A stretch of 64,000 nucleotides of DNA from Patescibacteria group bacterium (GTDB taxonomy: Bacteria > Patescibacteriota > Microgenomatia > Levybacterales > UBA12049), in NCBI GenBank assembly GCA_041743715.1, contig JBGTMH010000059.1:1608-65607 (forward strand), in the 5' to 3' direction. The notes beneath the pieces are model-generated. The model was not told the DNA's origin. It saw only the letters and a program-made list of their open reading frames with translations, and made no database searches. The translations under genes were made by a program, and so were the position numbers. Each line of letters begins with the position of its first letter. Within the stretch, counting starts at the first letter, position 1. Of the stretch, positions 4,346 through 63,955 are shown in pieces.

Positions 4346-5062
4346 TTATCTAGTTGGAGGAGTAGGAACTTTAAAATAAGCTTCAAATAAGCCTTGTCCT
4401 TGGGTGTCAATAAATACTGTAAAAATAGGATTGTTGTTATCTTCGACAAAACGACGCGTGTGTTCCTCTAGGATAGTATATGGGTTTGGTTCGGGAGAAC
4501 ATCCAAAACTCCCTCCACCATTTTGTATTAGATCAGTTACGACTGCAGGCGTCTGGGTGGTAAATACAGTTTGGGCCGAAGGAAAAGCGTCCGGATTGGA
4601 AGTCCAACTCTCTGAGGCATATTTATTATTAATTAGCTTATTAACTCCACCCTCCATTTTTTTACCTGGTGTATCTGTTTTTCCAATTGCTAGATGAGTA
4701 GCATCTGCGACCAATACTACAGTCTCTGTATCCGGTTTGGAGGGATGAAGTGCCTGAGTAGGATTTGTTATACAATCAACCACTTCTACATGTGGCGGGA
4801 GGGGGCCATGAGGGTCTATTCCAAATAGTTTGCCTGGTTGTTGTGGTACCGGTATTTCAGTAGGTGGTAAAAATGGAGTTGATGTGGCATCAGGACGAGG
4901 TTTTGTATCAGGTCCGGCTGTTTGGTTACCATATGCGCATGCTTCTGGTGCTATAGCCAACGCTGCTGCAAGCATTACCATTCGAATTCTTCTTCTTGGT
5001 TCTCTGGCGAGTCTTATCATATGCGTAGTGGGAAGTATAATAAACTTTTGGAAAATGTGCAA
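4346..5062 (-). CDS. Hypothetical secreted protein
   Basis: Long ORF with an N-terminal basic and hydrophobic segment (RRRIRMVMLAAALAIAPEACAYG). No recognisable catalytic motif. Confidence 0.5.
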   Translation of the reverse strand: MHIFQKFIILPTTHMIRLAREPRRRIRMVMLAAALAIAPEACAYGNQTAGPDTKPRPDATSTPFLPPTEIPVPQQPGKLFGIDPHGPLPPHVEVVDCITNPTQALHPSKPDTETVVLVADATHLAIGKTDTPGKKMEGGVNKLINNKYASESWTSNPDAFPSAQTVFTTQTPAVVTDLIQNGGGSFGCSPEPNPYTILEEHTRRFVEDNNNPIFTVFIDTQGQGLFEAYFKVPTPPTR

Positions 5063-5073
5063 GAGTTACGGAC

Positions 5074-5520
5074 TTAGAAAACTTCCACTCTGGTGCCATT
5101 ATCAGCCCAGTCATAGAGCCATTTTGAGGCGGGGATGGGGACGTTGACGCAGCCGTGGGTGCGGCGTGTTCCGAAGGAGTTATGCCAGTAGGCGCCATGG
5201 ATGGCATAGGCTCCGGTAAAATACATGACATTGGGGACGTTTTTTAGTGAATACGGTTCATATGGACGATAGTGGCCTTTCATGTCTTGCAGGGGAAGTT
5301 TGCGGTAAATTTTGAAACTTCCCTTGACAGTCGGTGTGTAGCGCATGCCTGTTGAGACTGGTGTTTGAAATTGTATTTTCCCCCCATCCCATGCATAAAG
5401 CATCTGTTTGCCGGTATCGACTGTAATGAGTTTGCCACTCGTGATGATATCTGCTGATGCGGGTTGGGGGAGGAGAAAAAAGAGGGAAAGTATGATAAAG
5501 AAGAGCATGAAGCGTTTCAT
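5074..5520 (-). CDS. L,D-transpeptidase (YkuD domain), secreted
   Basis: Signal peptide MKRFMLFFIILSLFFLLPQPASA. Catalytic motif YAIHGAYWHNSFGTRRTHGCVNVP (His...HGC). Confidence 0.85.
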   Translation of the reverse strand: MKRFMLFFIILSLFFLLPQPASADIITSGKLITVDTGKQMLYAWDGGKIQFQTPVSTGMRYTPTVKGSFKIYRKLPLQDMKGHYRPYEPYSLKNVPNVMYFTGAYAIHGAYWHNSFGTRRTHGCVNVPIPASKWLYDWADNGTRVEVF

Positions 5521-16781: not shown

Positions 16782-16975
16782 GCTAACTGGTCAATTAAAG
16801 GAGGTGAAGTTTGAGTTGCCGCACCCACACTGTCTACTCCAGCAGGATTGGTTGCTGTAGATGAGTTGTTATTTTCTAAGTAAGATGGTCGTACACCAAA
16901 TGCAGGTGATCTATATCCTCGAAATGGAACGCCTGCATCTGGTTGAGGTCTTGGCTGAACTACTTCTCTTAACAT
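16778..16975 (-). CDS. Small hypothetical protein (65 aa), apparently coupled to the downstream lipoprotein
   Basis: Preceded on the minus strand by TTGACA-18-TAGAAT, ending 9 nt before the ATG. Its stop overlaps the ATA of the next ORF. Confidence 0.4.
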   Translation of the reverse strand: MLREVVQPRPQPDAGVPFRGYRSPAFGVRPSYLENNNSSTATNPAGVDSVGAATQTSPPLIDQLA

Positions 16976-51688: not shown

Positions 51689-53197
51689 ATGAATATGAAA
51701 GCTGCATTATATGCTCGGGTAAGTTCCCGAGAACAAAAAGAAGGCTATTCCCTAGAGGCTCAGATTAAGCTAGGAAGAGAATATTCTGAGAAACAAGGAA
51801 TAGAGTTAGTAAGAGAATTTGCGGTTGCTGAAAGTGCGAAGAAAAGCGGAAGAGAACAATTTGAGCAAATGATTACCTTCTTGCGAGATAATCCAGATAT
51901 AAAAGTTATTATCTGTGAGAAAGTTGATCGACTACTTAGGGGTGATCTTAAAGATCGAGTAGCACTCGATGATCTTCTCAGAGAGAACGATAAAGAAATT
52001 CACTTCATAAAAGAGAATATTATCTTGAGCAAAGACTCAAAATCCTTTCAAAAGCTATATTATGGAATCCAAGCAGAGTTTGCTCGATTTTATCTGAATA
52101 ATCTTTCAGACGAGGTTAGGAAGTCTTACGAAATAATGGTTGATGATGGTAAATATCCACATCCGCCTCCAGTTGGCTATAAAGCGAAGCTTGAAAATCA
52201 CCTCTCTGTAGCAGATCCGGATAGAGCAGGTTTTATACCCAAAGCATTTCAATTAGCTTCTACTGGTAACTATAGTGAGAAAGCAATAAGTGACCTTTTA
52301 TATAAGGAAGGCTTCAGAAGTCGGACTGGTAAGCAAGTCGGAAAATCTGATATTGGAGGCATCTTGCATAACCCTTTCTACTATGGTGATTTTAGGTGGA
52401 AGGGAGAACTAAAAAAAGGAATTCATCAACCGCTGATACCTAAAAGTCTATTTGATAGAGTGCAAGAAGTGCTTTCTCCTCGAGGAAAGAATAAAGGAGT
52501 TAAACATCGATTTACTTATGCTGGCGGACTATTAACGTGTGGTTATTGTGGTAATGGGATCACAGCAGAAACTCAGAAGGGACACGTATATTATCGTTGT
52601 ACAAAGCCTAAGGGTGCAAAGAACTGTCCTCAAAAATATATTCGGGAAGAAACAATAGAAGAGCAATTAAGAGCCATAGTGAAAGCGATTAGTCTCAATT
52701 CGGAAACAGTAAATCTTATTAAGGACATACTGCACCAAAGCCATGATGAGGAGCAGGAATACCATAAGCAATCTCTTGAGGCTCTACAAAGCCGGTACAG
52801 TGCCATTAAAGCAAAGTTAGATAAACTTCTTAATGTGTACATTGACGAAGGTATTAGTAAGGAGATTTATACAGATAAATCACAAGAACTTGAGAAGGAA
52901 AGAAATGAAATTAATAGTCAGATTAACAGACATAAGAATGCGGATAAAGAGTATTTTGAGCAGGTAGAAAATTTTCTAGAAGTAGCATATCAAGCTCCGG
53001 CTTTATACAAGGGTTCGAGTACAGCATTAAAGAGAGAGTTTCTCAGGTTTATCGTCTCGAACCTCATTTTGAAGGATAAAAATGTCATTCCTAGCTTCAG
53101 ATTACCCTTTAGTTTACTAGTAGAGTATAAAGAAAATGAAAACTGGCAGGGGTGCACGGACTCGAACCGTGAAAAGCAGTTTTGGAGACTGCTGTGA
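51689..53197 (+). CDS. Large serine recombinase (resolvase domain + recombinase domain + zinc ribbon + coiled coil)
   Basis: AALYARVSSREQKEGYSLEAQ holds the catalytic Ser. The zinc ribbon is LLTCGYCGNGITAE...YYRCTKPKGAKNCPQ. The last 54 nt are antisense to tRNA-Trp. Confidence 0.9.
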   Translation: MNMKAALYARVSSREQKEGYSLEAQIKLGREYSEKQGIELVREFAVAESAKKSGREQFEQMITFLRDNPDIKVIICEKVDRLLRGDLKDRVALDDLLRENDKEIHFIKENIILSKDSKSFQKLYYGIQAEFARFYLNNLSDEVRKSYEIMVDDGKYPHPPPVGYKAKLENHLSVADPDRAGFIPKAFQLASTGNYSEKAISDLLYKEGFRSRTGKQVGKSDIGGILHNPFYYGDFRWKGELKKGIHQPLIPKSLFDRVQEVLSPRGKNKGVKHRFTYAGGLLTCGYCGNGITAETQKGHVYYRCTKPKGAKNCPQKYIREETIEEQLRAIVKAISLNSETVNLIKDILHQSHDEEQEYHKQSLEALQSRYSAIKAKLDKLLNVYIDEGISKEIYTDKSQELEKERNEINSQINRHKNADKEYFEQVENFLEVAYQAPALYKGSSTALKREFLRFIVSNLILKDKNVIPSFRLPFSLLVEYKENENWQGCTDSNREKQFWRLL

Positions 53198-54403: not shown

Positions 54404-54952
54404 TTATTCACTCTCTTTAAAGAAGTCATCTTTTTGTAATTCCATCAGGTAGCTCAGATCTTCTTCTTGCGGAATTTGTATCGTTCTTTTATACCTAAAA
54501 CCGGCCTTCTCATATGCTCTAATAGCCCGTTTATTCGTCGGTTCAGGATCGATTATGCAAAGTTGTATTGTTTTGTCCGCAAATACAATTTCTTTGAGAA
54601 ATTGTCTTATCATCAGTCTGCCAAAGCCTTTCCCTATATATTCAGGATTGCCGATGAATAGATCAATACCAGCAACACCTTCATTATATCCAGTAGCATC
54701 ACGGAATTCCGGCCAGTCCCGGGTTTTATACCATTGAATGTAACCGACAGGATTATTGTTGTACCATGCGATAAAACCGTCAGTCGGTTCGTTAATTTCT
54801 TTAAATGAATAGCGTTTGGTAACTTCAGCTAGGGTATTTTTTTCATTTTTATCGTACCATTCATGCACATGCGTTTCATTGAGCCATGTGGTTAGTAAGG
54901 AAAAATCCTGGGGCCGCAACGGTTTAAACGAAAGATGATCTGTATAAAACAT
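54404..54952 (-). CDS. GNAT-family N-acetyltransferase (Acetyltransf_8 / aminoglycoside 6'-N-acetyltransferase-like)
   Basis: LTTWLNETHVHEWY, IDLFIGNPEYIGKGFGRLMIRQFL and NKRAIRAYEKAGF. Confidence 0.8.
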   Translation of the reverse strand: MFYTDHLSFKPLRPQDFSLLTTWLNETHVHEWYDKNEKNTLAEVTKRYSFKEINEPTDGFIAWYNNNPVGYIQWYKTRDWPEFRDATGYNEGVAGIDLFIGNPEYIGKGFGRLMIRQFLKEIVFADKTIQLCIIDPEPTNKRAIRAYEKAGFRYKRTIQIPQEEDLSYLMELQKDDFFKESE

Positions 54953-58671: not shown

Positions 58672-59904
58672 TTAATATGGACTCACTGTAAAAATAGTAT
58701 CCCTTGCTATATACGCTCCTAATATTGAAATGTTTTTTACCGCGTCAATTCTTCCATACGCAGGATCCTCAGATGATCTTTGAGGAAGCCCTGCTGTAAA
58801 TAGTAATCTCTCAGTAGTTTCTGCGCTTTTTTCATCTCTTGATTGAAACTCAATATTTCCTCCACAAAACCTAGGGACTGCATCATATAAATATAAAAAT
58901 TCCGGAGCTAATTCTAGAACAGGTGCTTCAAGTGGTCCTACTACAGTGAAAATTTGCCTCATATCCGCAAAAGGCTTCTGCACATATAGTGGGACAGATG
59001 ATTGATCAGGATCCTGTTTTTGCAGGTCAGGAAATTTTAAAATAAACTCTGCAGACTCCATATTTGCAGGTAGTGAAAATGTTTCAAGATTTCTCAGAAC
59101 AAGATTTACTACTTCATCGGGATGCGGTAAGCTATTAATTCCTTCGCTTTCAAGCCTTTGGATATAACCCATCTGAGCGGCAACTAATAACCTCATAGTT
59201 TCATTAAGATTTGCCAAAAATCTTGGCTGATACGATTCGAAATCCTCGTAAATTATATGTTTTCGACGTTTCTTAGAACCTTTTTTAGCATCATTTTCTT
59301 TTTGCTCACGAACCAAATTACCAAACTCAATATTTACCTCGTGAGTTGCAGTTAAAAGGGAATAATACTTATGTTCCGGGCCTTTTCTTTTTATAGAATC
59401 AAAAAAATCAGAAGCCTGTTGTTTAGTCCAATATACACCAGTAATCATGAAAACGTGATCTTGTCCCTGATAACGAGCATCTATCTCCTCACAGATATAG
59501 GCGTCATTATGCGGCACATCTTTGGCAGATGGAATCAAGGAATTTCCTTTCAAATTATTTTCAAGGGAGGGTAAAATTCCTTCTGTAATTCTTGCAAAAG
59601 CAAGGTGGGAAAGTGCTCCTCGAAGCGCTTGATGCATACCTCTGACAATCTTAAGTCGCGCCCCAACCGGACTGTTATTAAATCCTTCTTTGATTCCTTC
59701 TTCACTTTTACCCTGTAATTTAGGAATTTGATTCGTTGCCAAATCAAAAAAAAGCTGTTTCTTTATATCATCTGTCTGTCTTGGATTATCGACAAAAGCT
59801 TGGGAGGCTTTTACAATAATCGCACGACGTCTTTTTTTCTTTCCCGAATCTTTCTCTTCTAGATCTATAGTTGTAGATCTAGCTCTGCGACCTTCTTTAT
59901 CCAT
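58672..59904 (-). CDS. Hypothetical protein (410 aa)
   Basis: Clean long ORF with a basic N-terminus. No motif recognised. Confidence 0.55.
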   Translation of the reverse strand: MDKEGRRARSTTIDLEEKDSGKKKRRRAIIVKASQAFVDNPRQTDDIKKQLFFDLATNQIPKLQGKSEEGIKEGFNNSPVGARLKIVRGMHQALRGALSHLAFARITEGILPSLENNLKGNSLIPSAKDVPHNDAYICEEIDARYQGQDHVFMITGVYWTKQQASDFFDSIKRKGPEHKYYSLLTATHEVNIEFGNLVREQKENDAKKGSKKRRKHIIYEDFESYQPRFLANLNETMRLLVAAQMGYIQRLESEGINSLPHPDEVVNLVLRNLETFSLPANMESAEFILKFPDLQKQDPDQSSVPLYVQKPFADMRQIFTVVGPLEAPVLELAPEFLYLYDAVPRFCGGNIEFQSRDEKSAETTERLLFTAGLPQRSSEDPAYGRIDAVKNISILGAYIARDTIFTVSPY

Positions 59905-60135
59905 TTTATTCCACGCTATTATTCGACTGCATTATACAATTTAATTGAAAGTAAATCCAGATGAAGGAATATATTTAGTTTAAATCTGACTCTCGTGACT
60001 AACGATGAGAAATGAACGTGGTATATCCTATAGGTGGTATATAAATATAATGTTACACGAAGCGCTCTTTTTTCTGTTAAATCAATATAATCTATATTGT
60101 ATATGCTAAATGGTCGTCATATTACGACAACTCTA

Positions 60136-60164
60136 TTGACATATGCTGCTAAGCAGGGTATTAT
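60136..60164 (+). promoter_or_regulatory. Near-consensus promoter TTGACA-17-TATTAT upstream of the peptide gene
   Basis: TTGACA at 60136-60141 and TATTAT at 60159-60164. A leader follows with AAAGGAGGTGA, 8 nt before ATG 60190. The small palindrome GTCGTCATATTACGAC lies just upstream. Confidence 0.6.
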
Positions 60165-60189
60165 TTGAATGAAAGGAGGTGATTATATT

Positions 60190-60405
60190 ATGCCACCAAC
60201 AATGCAAGAACGTGGAATAAGACCAGCAGCGGCTGAATCGAGATTTAAATTAAAAGAAGTAATAAAAAGTTCTGGGACAGGGACTGAAAATTTTAAACCA
60301 GGGAGTATTACAGTGTTTGAAGAAAGCGCTTCTAGACTTGACAGAACAGGTTTATCTAAGACTGTCAACAGAACACCAATGTTTTCTAACCCGAGCGGCA
60401 ATTAA
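60190..60405 (+). CDS. Candidate graspetide (omega-ester/amide peptide) precursor, 71 aa
   Basis: MPPTMQERGIRPAAAESRFKLKEVIKSSGTGTENFKPGSITVFEESASRLDRTGLSKTVNRTPMFSNPSGN. The SD lies inside the longer ORF-track version, so ATG 60190 is preferred. It sits 73 nt upstream of an MvdD-type ATP-grasp on the same strand. Confidence 0.55.
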   Translation: MPPTMQERGIRPAAAESRFKLKEVIKSSGTGTENFKPGSITVFEESASRLDRTGLSKTVNRTPMFSNPSGN

Positions 60406-60478
60406 GTTTTTCCCCTGCTGTAAAAAAACAGTATATAAAAACTTTGTCAAATAAGGAAATCGCCTGACCCACCCGCAT

Positions 60479-61471
60479 ATGCAGGTGGGTTACGGCATTT
60501 ACTACCAGATGAAAAATATTCTCATTGCTTCAGATAGTTTTGATCGACCCTACACCAAACCTGTTGTGGAAGAGCTGACCCGCAGGGGATTTTCTGTAAT
60601 GGTTTTTGAGGGAGATAGAGTCTCACAATTGTCTGACTCCTTTACTATTAAAATTCTTCATAACGGTAAGGCCGAAATCCGATATAAAGACAGGGTGCTT
60701 GATCCTACTCTCGTCGCGGCAGCTTGGCAGCGGAGACCATTTTTCTTTACCAGTAATTTCGATGATCCAGCAAGAAATGAATCATTTGCTGTGCAGTATC
60801 GGGGGTTGCTGAGATATATTTGGGATTCGATTCCTGACAAATTATGGCTTAATGCTCCCGCGAATGTAATCCGTTCCGAAGGAAAGTTGTCCCAACTAAC
60901 ATTGGCACAATCTGTGGGATTTGCAATACCTGAGACAGTTGTGAGTAATAATTGGGAAGATATTCTGGCACTTCCAAGCGATTTCCTGACCTTTAAAATG
61001 GTAAATGGGCTCCTTCATACGAAAAATGAAACCAAATATCTTACTTCTCAGAAATTCCCTAATAGTTCTGATTCACTTCCTCTGCAAAATGCTCCCTATC
61101 CGGGTATTTGGCAATCGTATATTGAAAAAGCACGCGAATGGCGTATTACCGTAGTCGGTGAACAGACCTTTGATGCTGCTATCTATACAACGAAAGAGGC
61201 AAAAAATGATTGGCGTGAACATCAAGAAAGCCGGAATTTAGTACAATTCAAAGCCGAGCGTTTCCCTGATAAAGAAAGGGAAAAGTGTTTGAAGTTTATG
61301 CAGCAATGCGATCTTAAGTTTGGAGCTTTCGATTTCATTGAGCAACCCGATGGAAAAATATTTTTTCTAGAATTAAATCCTGATGGTGAATACGGATGGT
61401 TGCAAAAAGAACTTGGTTTTCCTATCTCTGCCGCCATCGCCTCTGAACTTGCCGCGATTACAAAGCACTAA
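60479..61471 (+). CDS. ATP-grasp ligase, MvdC/MvdD (microviridin/graspetide macrocyclase)-like
   Basis: N-terminal ILIASDSFDRPYTKPVVEELTRRGFSVMVFEGD and C-terminal FGAFDFIEQPDGKIFFLELNPDGEYGWL. An alternative start is ATG 60509 (MKNILIAS). Confidence 0.7.
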   Translation: MQVGYGIYYQMKNILIASDSFDRPYTKPVVEELTRRGFSVMVFEGDRVSQLSDSFTIKILHNGKAEIRYKDRVLDPTLVAAAWQRRPFFFTSNFDDPARNESFAVQYRGLLRYIWDSIPDKLWLNAPANVIRSEGKLSQLTLAQSVGFAIPETVVSNNWEDILALPSDFLTFKMVNGLLHTKNETKYLTSQKFPNSSDSLPLQNAPYPGIWQSYIEKAREWRITVVGEQTFDAAIYTTKEAKNDWREHQESRNLVQFKAERFPDKEREKCLKFMQQCDLKFGAFDFIEQPDGKIFFLELNPDGEYGWLQKELGFPISAAIASELAAITKH

Positions 61472-61757
61472 AGTGCTTTTTCGTTACAGTATCATTTATT
61501 TATGTTGCCAGAATCACCATATTCAGAAGCTGAGATTGCTACTATGGCTGCACTGCTCAGGATATCAGGAACAGTAACGACTATAGAGATGATAGGTAAT
61601 GGAATACATGATTCTGAATTAGATAAAGTCAAACAGGATCCGGCGCATACCTGCGGCAATTGAAGAAATTTTTAGATATCGTACATCTTTTAGAGGTTTG
61701 GAATGCTGCAATGGCTGGAATCAAAAAGGGGCCAGCAGAGCCCCATCTGCGAGATAA
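61472..61757 (+). pseudogene. Cytochrome P450 relic (I-helix to K-helix only, frameshifted)
   Basis: ...SEAEIATMAALLRISGTVTTIEMIGNGI...QDP (I-helix AGxxTT-like). After a frame change near 61640-61650 comes IPAAIEEIFRYRTSF (ExxR). There is no N-terminal half and no Cys-ligand loop. Confidence 0.4.
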
Positions 61758-61810
61758 ATTATTTTCATGCATCTCTTAAAGGCCCTATACGATACTTGCA
61801 TGAGAGTTTT

Positions 61811-63955
61811 TTACTTATTCTTCCATCCCTTCAAGGCTTTTTTGACTTCTTCATCTTTGGGATCGATCTTTTTTAGAACGAATTCGTAGATCTCGATTGC
61901 TTTTTGGTGTTTGTCGGGGTGGATGACTTTTTCGTCTTTGTCAACGGCTTGTTGATGATAAAAGAGTCCTAATGCGACATACGGGTCGCGATAGTCCGGT
62001 TTGAGTTTTATGGTTTCTTCAAGCATGGCTATGGCGCGATCCAGATCTCCAACTTGTCCATGCAAGATGCCTTGATTATAAGAAATTTTTGCGTCGTTAG
62101 GTGAAAGCTCTTTGGCGCGGTCTATGGCACGGAGGGCTTCTGTGAGGTATTGCTGCTGGTTGGTGGTACTGCTGGATGAAAGTGTATATAACAACCGAAC
62201 CCTATTTTTCCAATACACTACATTATTTGGGTGAGCTAAGACAACTTCGTCACTGAGGGAGACTGCATTCTGCGCGAATTGTGCTGCATTTTTGTCGTCT
62301 TTTTGCGCATAAAGACCAGCTGCGTGTGCACCCATATTAATTGCTAGCTCATCTTTAAACAATGCTTCATCGGGTTTGGCTTTATATGCCTGTAAAAGAT
62401 ACGGTTGCGCCTCATTAAATTGTCCTACTTTGTCGAGGTTGAATCCATATGCATAGGCAATATCTGCTTGGCGGTAGGTGATGAGGCTGAGGTGGAGCCA
62501 GAGAGATATGAGAATTAAAAGACCAATAAACGTCCATTGGTAAGGATTGACTTCTTTTGAACTTGCGTCAGAAAAAGAAAAAGTAAGTGTATGATTTTCT
62601 TTAAGGAGTCCAAAGAGAATGAAAACAAAAGCAGGAATCAGAAAGAGATAGATATTCGTGATGACGACCGAGAAGCCGAAAAAGTTGGTGATAAGAAGAG
62701 AGAGCCAACCGGCGAAGAGGGCAATAGCAAGAAGTGAGAGGTGAGAAGTAAGAGGTGAGAGTTGAGAATGGTTATGTTGTTTGATATAGAGATTTTTATG
62801 ATGCGTGGTTGGTGGACCTACGGGCTGTGCGTTCTTAAAGAGATATTTGAAAAAGAGAAATGTGAAAAAGGCGATGAAGGCGAGATATGTTCCTAGACCA
62901 AATATACCCGTTGTTGTCAGGTAATTCAGGTACTCATTGTGCGCTTTATTGTAGAGATAATCCCATTCGGAGGTGAGGTTGTGAGCTGGGGATTTGTGTT
63001 TGTAATACGCGAAAGCAAACGTTTCGACACCAGTACCGAAAATGGGATTTGCCTGCCATGCCGCGATCGCGCCGCTCCAAACATATTGTCTAATAACAGC
63101 GGAGTCAGTTATATTAATGCTACCGTGGAAAGCGTCGTAGACATCGCCACCTCCAGCTTGAGCTGATGCTGGTTGAGTTGAGGATGAGGTAGTTTTTGTG
63201 GGTTGGGCAGCGTTCATCCCAGGGAGTGTATATCTGTAGAATGAACCAATTGGTCCCCCTAAGATAAAAGTGCACAGGAGAAATGCAACGGTAAAGAATG
63301 CAAAGGGGCGGAGAAACTGATTGAGTGTGAATTCTTTTTTGAAGAAGACAACAGCCCAAAAGACTACGTATGCTACCCCGAAACCGATCAAACCTGCTCG
63401 TGTGTTGGCAAAGAGGAGATTGATATAGAAAGAAACAGAGAGGAATGCGAAAACCATCAATTTCCAATTGCTAACCGCTAATTTCATATGATTTTCTTTG
63501 AAATTATTCAATGCATATCCCATCGCGAGTGGGATGAGTAATGCTAAATATGCGGCGAACCACGCCGGCTGGCCGAGGGTTGAAAATGCTCTAACTGTAG
63601 GTTTGAATTGATCAGTCCAACATGCAGTATCGAACGTCCCCCTAAAGACAAAACATGTTGGGTCAGCGCCGAAGTGCGATGGAAAACCCCATAATACGGT
63701 TAGAAATCCAGCAGCAAGTGAGACGAGGAGCGTTTTGTAGACATGCTTCAGTTGGAGATTGGAAACAAAAGCGTAATATAAAAGAATATAGCTGATTGTC
63801 GAGAGCAAACCGCCGTTAAATCGTGAGTAAGATCCCCACCACGAGACTTGCTGATCAAGACTGAAAAGGGTTGAGATAATTTGCGAAGCGAGAAAAAGCA
63901 TAAGCAGTATATCAAGCGGAGTCCGTTGAATAAGAATTTTACGCTCAAGAATCAT
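61811..63955 (-). CDS. O-antigen ligase-like (Wzy_C) polytopic membrane protein with C-terminal TPR repeats
   Basis: AHNEYLNYLTTTGIFGLGTYLAF (Wzy_C core), at least 10 TM helices, and a C-terminal ~230 aa of TPR-like repeats. Confidence 0.8.
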   Translation of the reverse strand: MILERKILIQRTPLDILLMLFLASQIISTLFSLDQQVSWWGSYSRFNGGLLSTISYILLYYAFVSNLQLKHVYKTLLVSLAAGFLTVLWGFPSHFGADPTCFVFRGTFDTACWTDQFKPTVRAFSTLGQPAWFAAYLALLIPLAMGYALNNFKENHMKLAVSNWKLMVFAFLSVSFYINLLFANTRAGLIGFGVAYVVFWAVVFFKKEFTLNQFLRPFAFFTVAFLLCTFILGGPIGSFYRYTLPGMNAAQPTKTTSSSTQPASAQAGGGDVYDAFHGSINITDSAVIRQYVWSGAIAAWQANPIFGTGVETFAFAYYKHKSPAHNLTSEWDYLYNKAHNEYLNYLTTTGIFGLGTYLAFIAFFTFLFFKYLFKNAQPVGPPTTHHKNLYIKQHNHSQLSPLTSHLSLLAIALFAGWLSLLITNFFGFSVVITNIYLFLIPAFVFILFGLLKENHTLTFSFSDASSKEVNPYQWTFIGLLILISLWLHLSLITYRQADIAYAYGFNLDKVGQFNEAQPYLLQAYKAKPDEALFKDELAINMGAHAAGLYAQKDDKNAAQFAQNAVSLSDEVVLAHPNNVVYWKNRVRLLYTLSSSSTTNQQQYLTEALRAIDRAKELSPNDAKISYNQGILHGQVGDLDRAIAMLEETIKLKPDYRDPYVALGLFYHQQAVDKDEKVIHPDKHQKAIEIYEFVLKKIDPKDEEVKKALKGWKNK

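Follow-up and report, generated by a model that had tools for sequence, protein, structure and literature searches.

The question raised by this locus is whether a 71 amino acid (aa) open reading frame (ORF) and the ATP-grasp ligase gene that follows it on the same strand form a biosynthetic unit for a graspetide, a peptide made on the ribosome and modified after translation (RiPP), and what the ligase could make from such a peptide. Both genes lie in a 64-kb stretch of contig JBGTMH010000059.1 from a Patescibacteria (candidate phyla radiation, CPR) genome, and this whole stretch is referred to as the window. An earlier interpretation made without database searches (the sequence-only reading) had proposed a minimal graspetide-type cassette of precursor and ligase, and this proposal gains support from a leader motif shared across a clade of related loci and from a ligase of the graspetide synthetase type. 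That the pair is a self-contained two-gene graspetide cassette with a precursor short of acceptor residues was given a probability of roughly 0.75. The features that carry this reading are as follows (window coordinates).

60190–60405, forward strand: precursor peptide gene, 71 aa plus stop codon, upstream of the ligase gene, with the clade leader motif and otherwise an orphan
60307–60330, forward strand: leader recognition motif I40-T-V-F-E-E-S-A47, located with a position-specific scoring matrix (PSSM) and a leader hidden Markov model (HMM)
60509–61471, forward strand: graspetide synthetase (ATP-grasp macrocyclase), 320 aa, identified by HMM matches, PDB sequence search and AlphaFold2/Foldseek

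The 71 aa ORF (MPPTMQERG...NPSGN) and the N- and C-terminal ligase strings quoted in the sequence-only reading were all found in the sequence, as were the expression signals described below. Full-length matches of the ligase to NCBIfam models were obtained for MvdC (2.4e-48), SAV_5884 (1.2e-47), MvdD (2.4e-33) and grasp-with-spasm (2.4e-18), with much weaker matches to the primary-metabolism models RimK (6.8e-6) and LysX (9e-5). A phmmer search of the PDB matched only MdnB, AMdnB, MdnC, CdnC and PruB, and a profile built from the ligase clade retrieved the six solved graspetide synthetases (PsnB being added) and nothing else at E<=1e-3, with no RimK chain recovered. The AlphaFold2 model of the ligase (predicted local distance difference test score, pLDDT, 92.6; predicted template modelling score, pTM, 0.90) combines a pre-ATP-grasp domain of the MvdD N-terminal type with an ATP-grasp fold. 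The top 32 Foldseek matches of this model were graspetide synthetases, including all six solved ones, and RimK and LysX appeared from rank 33; template modelling scores (TM-scores) were 0.70–0.81 over ~320–330 columns against MdnC, AMdnB, CdnC, PruB and PsnB.

HMM searches, PDB search and Foldseek therefore agree that the enzyme groups with RiPP macrocyclases and not with RimK, LysX, glutathione synthetase or other primary-metabolism ATP-grasp enzymes. By sequence and predicted structure it is a graspetide synthetase of the MdnC/MdnB/CdnC/PruB/PsnB type. The narrower label ‘MvdD-type’ holds at the superfamily level but not as an equivalog, as the scores against TIGR04185 and TIGR04184 (165 bits versus 425 and 116 bits versus 475, respectively) are below the curated cutoffs for both MvdC and MvdD. 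In an alignment with 19 homologues, all 41 clade-invariant columns are kept in the ligase, among them D234-W235-R236, R212 in the EWRITV segment, D275, E288 and N290, and the gene looks functional on this evidence. The putative equivalence of ligase residues to Arg213 and Arg72 of PsnB is drawn from motif context and not from residue-level alignment.

The link between ligase and peptide was examined with a leader PSSM built from the motifs of 45 relatives, the window being excluded. The octamer ITVFEESA in the 71 aa peptide scored 20.1 bits and ranked first among the 74,927 octamers obtained by translating the window in six frames, with the runner-up at 10.8 bits, and an HMM of the leader region placed the precursor ORF first of 1,869 fragments in the window. 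As the motif occurs in an ORF of the expected position and strand that is preceded by strong expression signals, the 71 aa ORF is, judged by sequence, the cognate precursor of the ligase.

Outside the motif, no homologue of the peptide was found by a word-index search, which returned only the peptide itself. When 1.84 billion representatives were searched exhaustively with phmmer, the peptide came back together with two giant repeat proteins (18–29%, ~40% identity), the scores of which are inflated by repeats and which were treated as artefacts. The small ORF is thus conserved among relatives in its leader motif, which is present clade-wide, and the remaining sequence is an orphan.

The lack of homologues could also be explained if the small ORF were a chance ORF or encoded an unrelated small protein, the ATP-grasp enzyme then acting on another substrate, for example one of the RimK/LysX-like primary-metabolism kind. 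ORFs of ~70 codons are not rare in AT-rich DNA, and there is a 72 aa ORF antisense to the precursor gene. This explanation was considered highly improbable, because the best leader motif of the whole window falls exactly upstream of the ligase gene and on the same strand, because RimK matches so much more weakly than MvdC and no RimK chain was retrieved by the clade profile, and because RimK comes after all six solved graspetide synthetases among the matches of the structure model. The antisense ORF (60183–60401, reverse strand) covers nearly the whole length of the precursor gene and is most probably a functionless mirror ORF.

Two expression signals precede the precursor gene.

60136–60164, forward strand: sigma-70-like promoter, TTGACA (60136–60141), 17 nt, TATTAT (60159–60164), 11 of 12 consensus positions, with function predicted from the sequence
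60172–60182, forward strand: Shine-Dalgarno (SD) site AAAGGAGGTGA, 7 nt upstream of the ATG at 60190, read directly

The promoter is one of only four sites with an 11/12 match on the two strands of the window, and predicts a transcription start at ~60170–60172. Only three copies of the 10-mer AAGGAGGTGA exist in the window, and an SD core of at least 4 nt near the start is missing from 46 of its 61 long ORFs. Both signals are thus unusual in this window, as had been claimed. An alternative ATG at 60169 would give a 78 aa form (database entry P0121), but it is overlapped by the SD site and the 71 aa form is therefore the likelier product. Other (A)AGGAGGTGA sites were seen at 16799 (forward strand), 34301 (reverse strand) and 46515 (reverse strand), each a few bases upstream of an ATG or TTG; strong SD sites seem to be kept for a handful of genes, with most genes in the genome having none.

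Approximately 100 homologues of the ligase with 39–58% identity were found in the protein database, and the few named ones are from Candidatus Saccharimonadales. Taking the protein database together with scans of genome and metagenome contigs, relatives share 35–58% identity and are mostly from Saccharimonadia, with some from actinobacteria. The contig scans yielded 160 loci, of which 77 with a complete ligase ORF were used to count precursors, and under a strict filter a small same-strand ORF bearing the motif was present in 52 of the 77. The motif, x-[T/S]-[V/A/I/L]-[F/L/M]-[E/D]-x-[L/I]-A, takes forms such as ITVLEALA, ITVFEKLA, ISLFEALA, TAFEELS and TAFEALA. The ORF that carries it is either directly upstream of the ligase gene or ~550–800 nt upstream, behind an ORF of ~200–235 aa, and was found downstream of the ligase gene in one Streptomyces locus only.

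The cores that follow the motif are mutually unrelated but all are rich in acids at the C-terminus. They include SRSNxSTxxxGDADDQ, TRLPDGQTVPDER, DDQDxEHLYE, QGKVDFDD and SPKTIWHSKTEPDKMSASDTRGSD, and at least five types can be told apart by their endings (...DADDQ, ...DGQTVPDER, ...DQEHLYE, ...DFDD and ...TRGSD). The eight closest ligases (L081–L087 and L001; 47–58% identity) have an ORF of 75–97 aa directly upstream and no accessory gene, and ~9–22 nt separate the end of this precursor ORF from the ligase start with the best support. In P0005, another close homologue (53% identity), a 76 aa ORF stands upstream of the ligase gene. The genes flanking the cassettes differ at every locus and none of the neighbours in the window recurs, indicating that the cassette moves as a two-gene unit of peptide and ligase.

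A conserved ORF of ~200–235 aa lies between precursor and ligase in L003, L005, L010, L012, L029, L030, L036, L098–L104, L110 and L114–L120, and the window has no such middle ORF. The middle ORFs have no Pfam or NCBIfam assignment except for the L012 copy, which matches DUF6624 (3e-10), and they may encode a partner or tailoring protein. They were also considered as PIMT-type methyltransferases of the fuscimiditide-like kind, but no such match was obtained and the one weak match was to DUF6624. Two tandem motif-bearing precursors were seen upstream of a single ligase in L115 and L117 (1007–1695), and two ligase cassettes with different core types occur on contig Ga0075366_10000147 (L113 and L123) and in one metagenome-assembled genome (L007 and L009), which suggests that duplication has occurred in the clade and that its cores have diversified. 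Just downstream of the L001 ligase, at ~4990–5075, there is an apparent tRNA gene on the opposite strand (...tggcgggatggacgggactcgaacccgcgacctcc...), which could hint at tRNA-adjacent integration.

The window precursor departs from all of these relatives in the region where cross-links would be expected.

60331–60402, forward strand: putative core S48–N71 (SRLDRTGLSKTVNRTPMFSNPSGN), the 24 residues after the motif

The core contains eight potential donors (Ser, Thr or Lys) among its 24 residues and a single acid, D51, which occupies position +4 relative to the motif. In the sequence-only reading, the C-terminal half was described as interspersing Thr and Ser with Glu, Asp and Lys, the residues to be cross-linked. 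The quoted 36 aa string does contain these residues, but E33, E44 and E45 are all located before or inside the leader motif and D51 is the sole acid beyond it, so that part of the description failed. Every Glu of the peptide is at the motif or ahead of it, and Asp and Glu are both absent from the last 20 residues. The 45 relatives have 4–11 acids after the motif (median 6) and 2–6 in the last 15 residues, compared with one and none, respectively, in the window. An acid close to the leader, within positions +1 to +8, is present in 27 of 27 representative relatives, as it is in the window, and all 27 have at least three acids beyond +8, where the window has none. The tail ...SNPSGN also has Asn where the closest relatives, ending in ...SDPDTRGSD or ...DTDPNQD, have Asp, a correspondence that is suggestive only.

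An acidic tail surviving downstream was sought, as would be expected of a truncated precursor. Translation of the spacer in three frames and a tblastn search of 60100–60560 with the peptides of seven relatives gave only the ITVFE motif, and a frameshift to another C-terminus was set aside as the other frames are stop-rich or non-acidic. In this enzyme family, ATP is used to phosphorylate an Asp or Glu side-chain carboxylate, which is then attacked by Ser, Thr or Lys to form a lactone or lactam (PMC13097080; bioRxiv 10.1101/2021.03.09.434688). As the canonical chemistry needs an Asp or Glu acceptor and D51 is the only acid in the core, at most one canonical ring could be formed, and the precursor would be either degenerate or used non-canonically.

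The spacer between the two genes is also unlike that of the relatives, and three hairpins were located in and after it.

60405–60443, forward strand: first spacer hairpin, directly after the precursor stop codon, -9.7 kcal/mol, z-score -5.1
60462–60496, forward strand: strong GC-rich hairpin, -24 kcal/mol, z-score -4.6, with none of 200 shuffles folding as well
61462–61479, forward strand: small hairpin with T-run (inverted repeat I8) overlapping the ligase stop codon, weakly terminator-like, -7.1 kcal/mol, z-score -2.1

The sequence-only reading placed the precursor 73 nt upstream of the ligase on the same strand. The position stands but the distance is 103 nt, because the ligase starts at the ATG at 60509 (MKNILIAS), where 19 of 19 aligned homologues have their equivalent start, and not at the ATG at 60479. 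The region 60400–60515 folds at -35.8 kcal/mol (z-score -5.5). Its strong hairpin at 60462–60496 is unique in the window, has the ATG at 60479 in its loop, stops 12 nt short of the ligase ATG and is not followed by a U-tract; no Rfam family was matched by the spacer. From its sequence and position this hairpin is a candidate attenuator of read-through or translation, or a candidate stabiliser of the 3′-end of the precursor transcript. As a terminator candidate, the hairpin at the ligase stop codon is weak. Where relatives carry the precursor directly upstream, the gap is ~9–43 nt and no such structured spacer is present, and the atypical spacer may mark a rearranged, and possibly defective, 3′-end of the precursor gene.

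These observations bear on whether the cassette is decaying, that is, whether a 3′ rearrangement, or Asp-to-Asn and other substitutions, removed the acceptors and left an intact ligase that produces no modified peptide. Such decay, which was regarded as possible but only tentatively, would account for the loss of every acid beyond +8, for Asn at the Asp positions of the closest relatives (SNPSGN against SDPDTRGSD, each followed by the stop codon), for the unusual length of the spacer and for the orphan status of the peptide. However, the leader motif still scores 20 bits, the ORF is intact and has the best combination of promoter and SD site in the neighbourhood, and every invariant residue of the ligase is kept. 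Neutral decay should have eroded leader, ORF, expression signals and ligase residues as well, and their retention therefore counts against it.

Alternatively, the peptide could still be recognised through its leader and be used as a donor-only precursor in a non-canonical way. Ser, Thr or Lys of the core might be joined to the N-terminal acids E44, E45 and D51 in a reversed topology, or to the C-terminal alpha-carboxylate; further options are ligation to acids on another molecule, or a role of the peptide as a trans-activating leader for a leaderless substrate. A core with one-third donor residues, a conserved leader and strong expression signals would suit such a use, and there is a precedent in ThfB, a graspetide synthetase described in PMC12291112 as tolerating very diverse substrates and as able to cross-link separate protein chains. 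Against it, C-terminal acids are kept in every relative, indicating that the normal chemistry of the clade is canonical, and no candidate second substrate was found in the 64-kb window with the PSSM and the leader HMM. Non-canonical use was accordingly judged improbable.

A 53 aa ORF downstream of the ligase gene (61502–61663) has a Thr cluster followed by acids (SGTVTTIEMIGNGIHDSELDKVKQD), and was considered as a second or the real precursor. The leader motif is missing from it, it does not resemble the 71 aa peptide and no counterpart exists at the loci of relatives, and it is further disfavoured by its location beyond the small terminator-like hairpin. This ORF falls in an interval of 339 nt (61472–61810) with no convincing gene, between the ligase gene and a convergent Wzy_C/TPR gene.

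Returning to the two-gene cassette with an acceptor-poor precursor, the strong promoter and SD site would drive production of the 71 aa peptide, and the 103-nt structured spacer with its -24 kcal/mol hairpin probably limits read-through into, or translation of, the ligase gene. Limited expression of the ligase would keep the precursor in excess over the enzyme. By analogy with the MdnC/PsnB family, the ligase should dock on the precursor motif I40–A47, and the product would have one canonical ring at the most, joining D51 to T53, S56, K57, T58 or T62, and maybe none. If no ring is made, the peptide would be a recently degenerated substrate or have a non-canonical role. Provided that the identity of the cassette is right, the chance that no cross-link is formed on a degenerate substrate comes close to even, a single D51 ring is a more tentative expectation and non-canonical use is unlikely. 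The most likely readings are thus a degenerate substrate or a single D51 ring.

Several points weigh against the cassette reading. None of the curated NCBIfam cutoffs is reached by the ligase (165 bits, where 425 and 350 would be needed), and the match of this enzyme to PF21068, a domain present in many relatives, is sub-threshold (19 bits against 27). No member of the ligase clade has been characterised biochemically, and the boundary between leader and core and the ring-forming residues are taken from conservation only. The peptide is an orphan, which puts purifying selection beyond the reach of comparison, and the length of the spacer is outside the range seen where relatives have the precursor directly upstream. 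A local assembly error is also possible, the source being a metagenome-assembled contig.

The other genes near the cassette were assessed as possible members. A gene for a 410 aa protein (58672–59904, reverse strand) is located just upstream of the precursor promoter; no family was assigned to this protein, and its sole match, to a Mu Gam/Gp157-like TOTE conflict-system domain, is not significant (E=0.14). This divergent gene was rejected as a cassette member, having no family match and being found at no relative's locus. The Wzy_C/TPR gene (61811–63955) was likewise rejected, as it is at no relative's locus and its domain matches give no link to the cassette. The statement that no GNAT accompanies the pair is effectively right. 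The nearest GNAT gene (54404–54952, reverse strand) is 5.2 kb away, with genes for an M50 peptidase, L28, fmt and def in between, and none is found at the loci of relatives; a role as a microviridin-like acetyltransferase was rejected because the gene is on the opposite strand, ~5 kb away and beyond housekeeping genes. For the fmt gene of the window, the best matches that carry a name (50–62% identity) are from Patescibacteria, among them Curtissbacteria and Saccharimonadales, which places the host in the CPR. A large serine recombinase (Resolvase, Recombinase and Zn_ribbon_recom domains) is encoded 7 kb upstream of the cassette (51689–53197, forward strand), but with housekeeping genes in between a link to cassette mobility is not evident.

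The cassette as such is expected, since graspetides form an established class of RiPPs that has already been predicted for candidate phyla in surveys of 2022 and 2026. In the literature that was searched, no paper was found that pairs graspetides with Saccharibacteria or Patescibacteria by name. The comparison outlines a clade of some 100 loci or more, most of them from Saccharimonadia and some from actinobacteria, which share one leader motif and have at least five unrelated cores, with or without the ~200 aa partner gene; a published group number seems to exist for the DADDQ subtype alone. The individual oddity of the window cassette is, as its sequence reads, a leader-bearing precursor with strong expression signals and a core short of acceptors. 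With the leader kept and the acceptors lost, this precursor is a natural test of a graspetide synthetase on a donor-only substrate and a scaffold on which acceptors could be restored by placing Asp at N60, N67 and N71. If a donor-only peptide were indeed used non-canonically, graspetide biosynthesis would gain a mode that has not yet been described.

Among known systems, the microviridin enzymes MdnB and MdnC (MvdC/MvdD; group 1), which act on MdnA, resemble the window ligase in fold (Foldseek against MdnC 5ig9, 6e-23, TM-score 0.79; phmmer against MdnB 5ig8, 4e-30), and there too a leader-dependent ATP-grasp macrocyclase is encoded beside its precursor. However, the window peptide has neither the PFFARFL leader nor the TxKYPSDWEEY core, in agreement with the sequence-only reading that it is not a microviridin. 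In addition, a single ligase takes the place of two, neither a GNAT nor an ABC transporter gene is linked, and the ligase is below the MvdC and MvdD cutoffs.

In the plesiocin system (PsnA2/PsnB; group 2), PsnB docks on the leader segment LFIEDL, recognises the ring-forming acid via Arg213 and has a D(F/W)R loop (bioRxiv 10.1101/2021.03.09.434688). The short hydrophobic-acidic docking leader has its parallel in h-T-h-F/L-E-x-L-A of the window clade (h, hydrophobic), and the loop in D234-W235-R236 of the window ligase. The similarity is remote (clade profile against 7drm, 1.6e-10; Foldseek identity 17–19%), and the plesiocin core consists of repeated TTxxxxEE whereas the window core has no Glu. 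Graspimiditides (group 13; fuscimiditide type) differ in that the window cassette has no gene for a PIMT-like O-methyltransferase.

Graspetide loci of CPR bacteria were described by Makarova et al. 2022 (PMC8939145; branches 1 and 2), and RODEO was extended to 43 graspetide groups by Carter et al. 2026 (ACS Chem Biol, PMC13097080), who report candidate-phyla members in groups 27 and 42, the latter from Komeilibacteria with DUF6624, and DUF6624 as a recurrent unexplained partner. The CPR loci and group 42 share with the window a graspetide gene cluster in a CPR bacterium and a small, poorly conserved precursor. They differ in having a ‘Phhx(1,2)h’ leader, TxxxTx(6-10)Dx(1-4)D cores and accessory genes (cluster 23, TPR, peptidases, SPASM and DUF6624), and none of the clade motif strings was present in the searched supplementary files of Makarova et al. 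2022.

A closer match is group 38 (PMC13097080), predicted by RODEO from 27 precursors with no member characterised, and represented by Micromonospora sp. NPDC005172, in which a precursor MNEQ...RRISVLEALADAARGVGPSRSNQSTVAAGDADDQ is encoded with a ligase and an ‘unknown’ protein. On sequence grounds, group 38 is plainly the DADDQ subtype of the window ligase's clade, and its ‘unknown’ protein is probably the product of the middle ORF. The leaders are alike (ISVLEALA in group 38; ITVFEESA in the window), the precursor gene is upstream of the ligase gene in both, and ligases of the DADDQ subtype (e.g. L118–L120, L110 and L035) are 37–40% identical to the window ligase over the full length. However, the core SRSNQSTxxxGDADDQ and the ~200 aa protein of group 38 are absent from the window, which has no intervening gene, and the representative is an actinobacterium whereas the window host is a CPR bacterium. 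The window cassette thus shares the leader of group 38 but neither its core nor its intervening gene.

The nearest counterparts are the eight loci from Saccharimonadia and from soil or other metagenomes that encode the closest ligases (L081–L086, L001 and L087). Their 75–97 aa precursors have acid-rich tails (e.g. ...TARTSVTSPKTIWHSKTEPDKMSASDTRGSD) and end close to the ligase start, whereas the window precursor has a shorter, acid-free tail and is followed by the structured spacer. With the window they share a ligase of 47–58% identity, a precursor directly upstream with no accessory gene, a T-A/V-F-E-E motif and an acid 4–8 residues after this motif.

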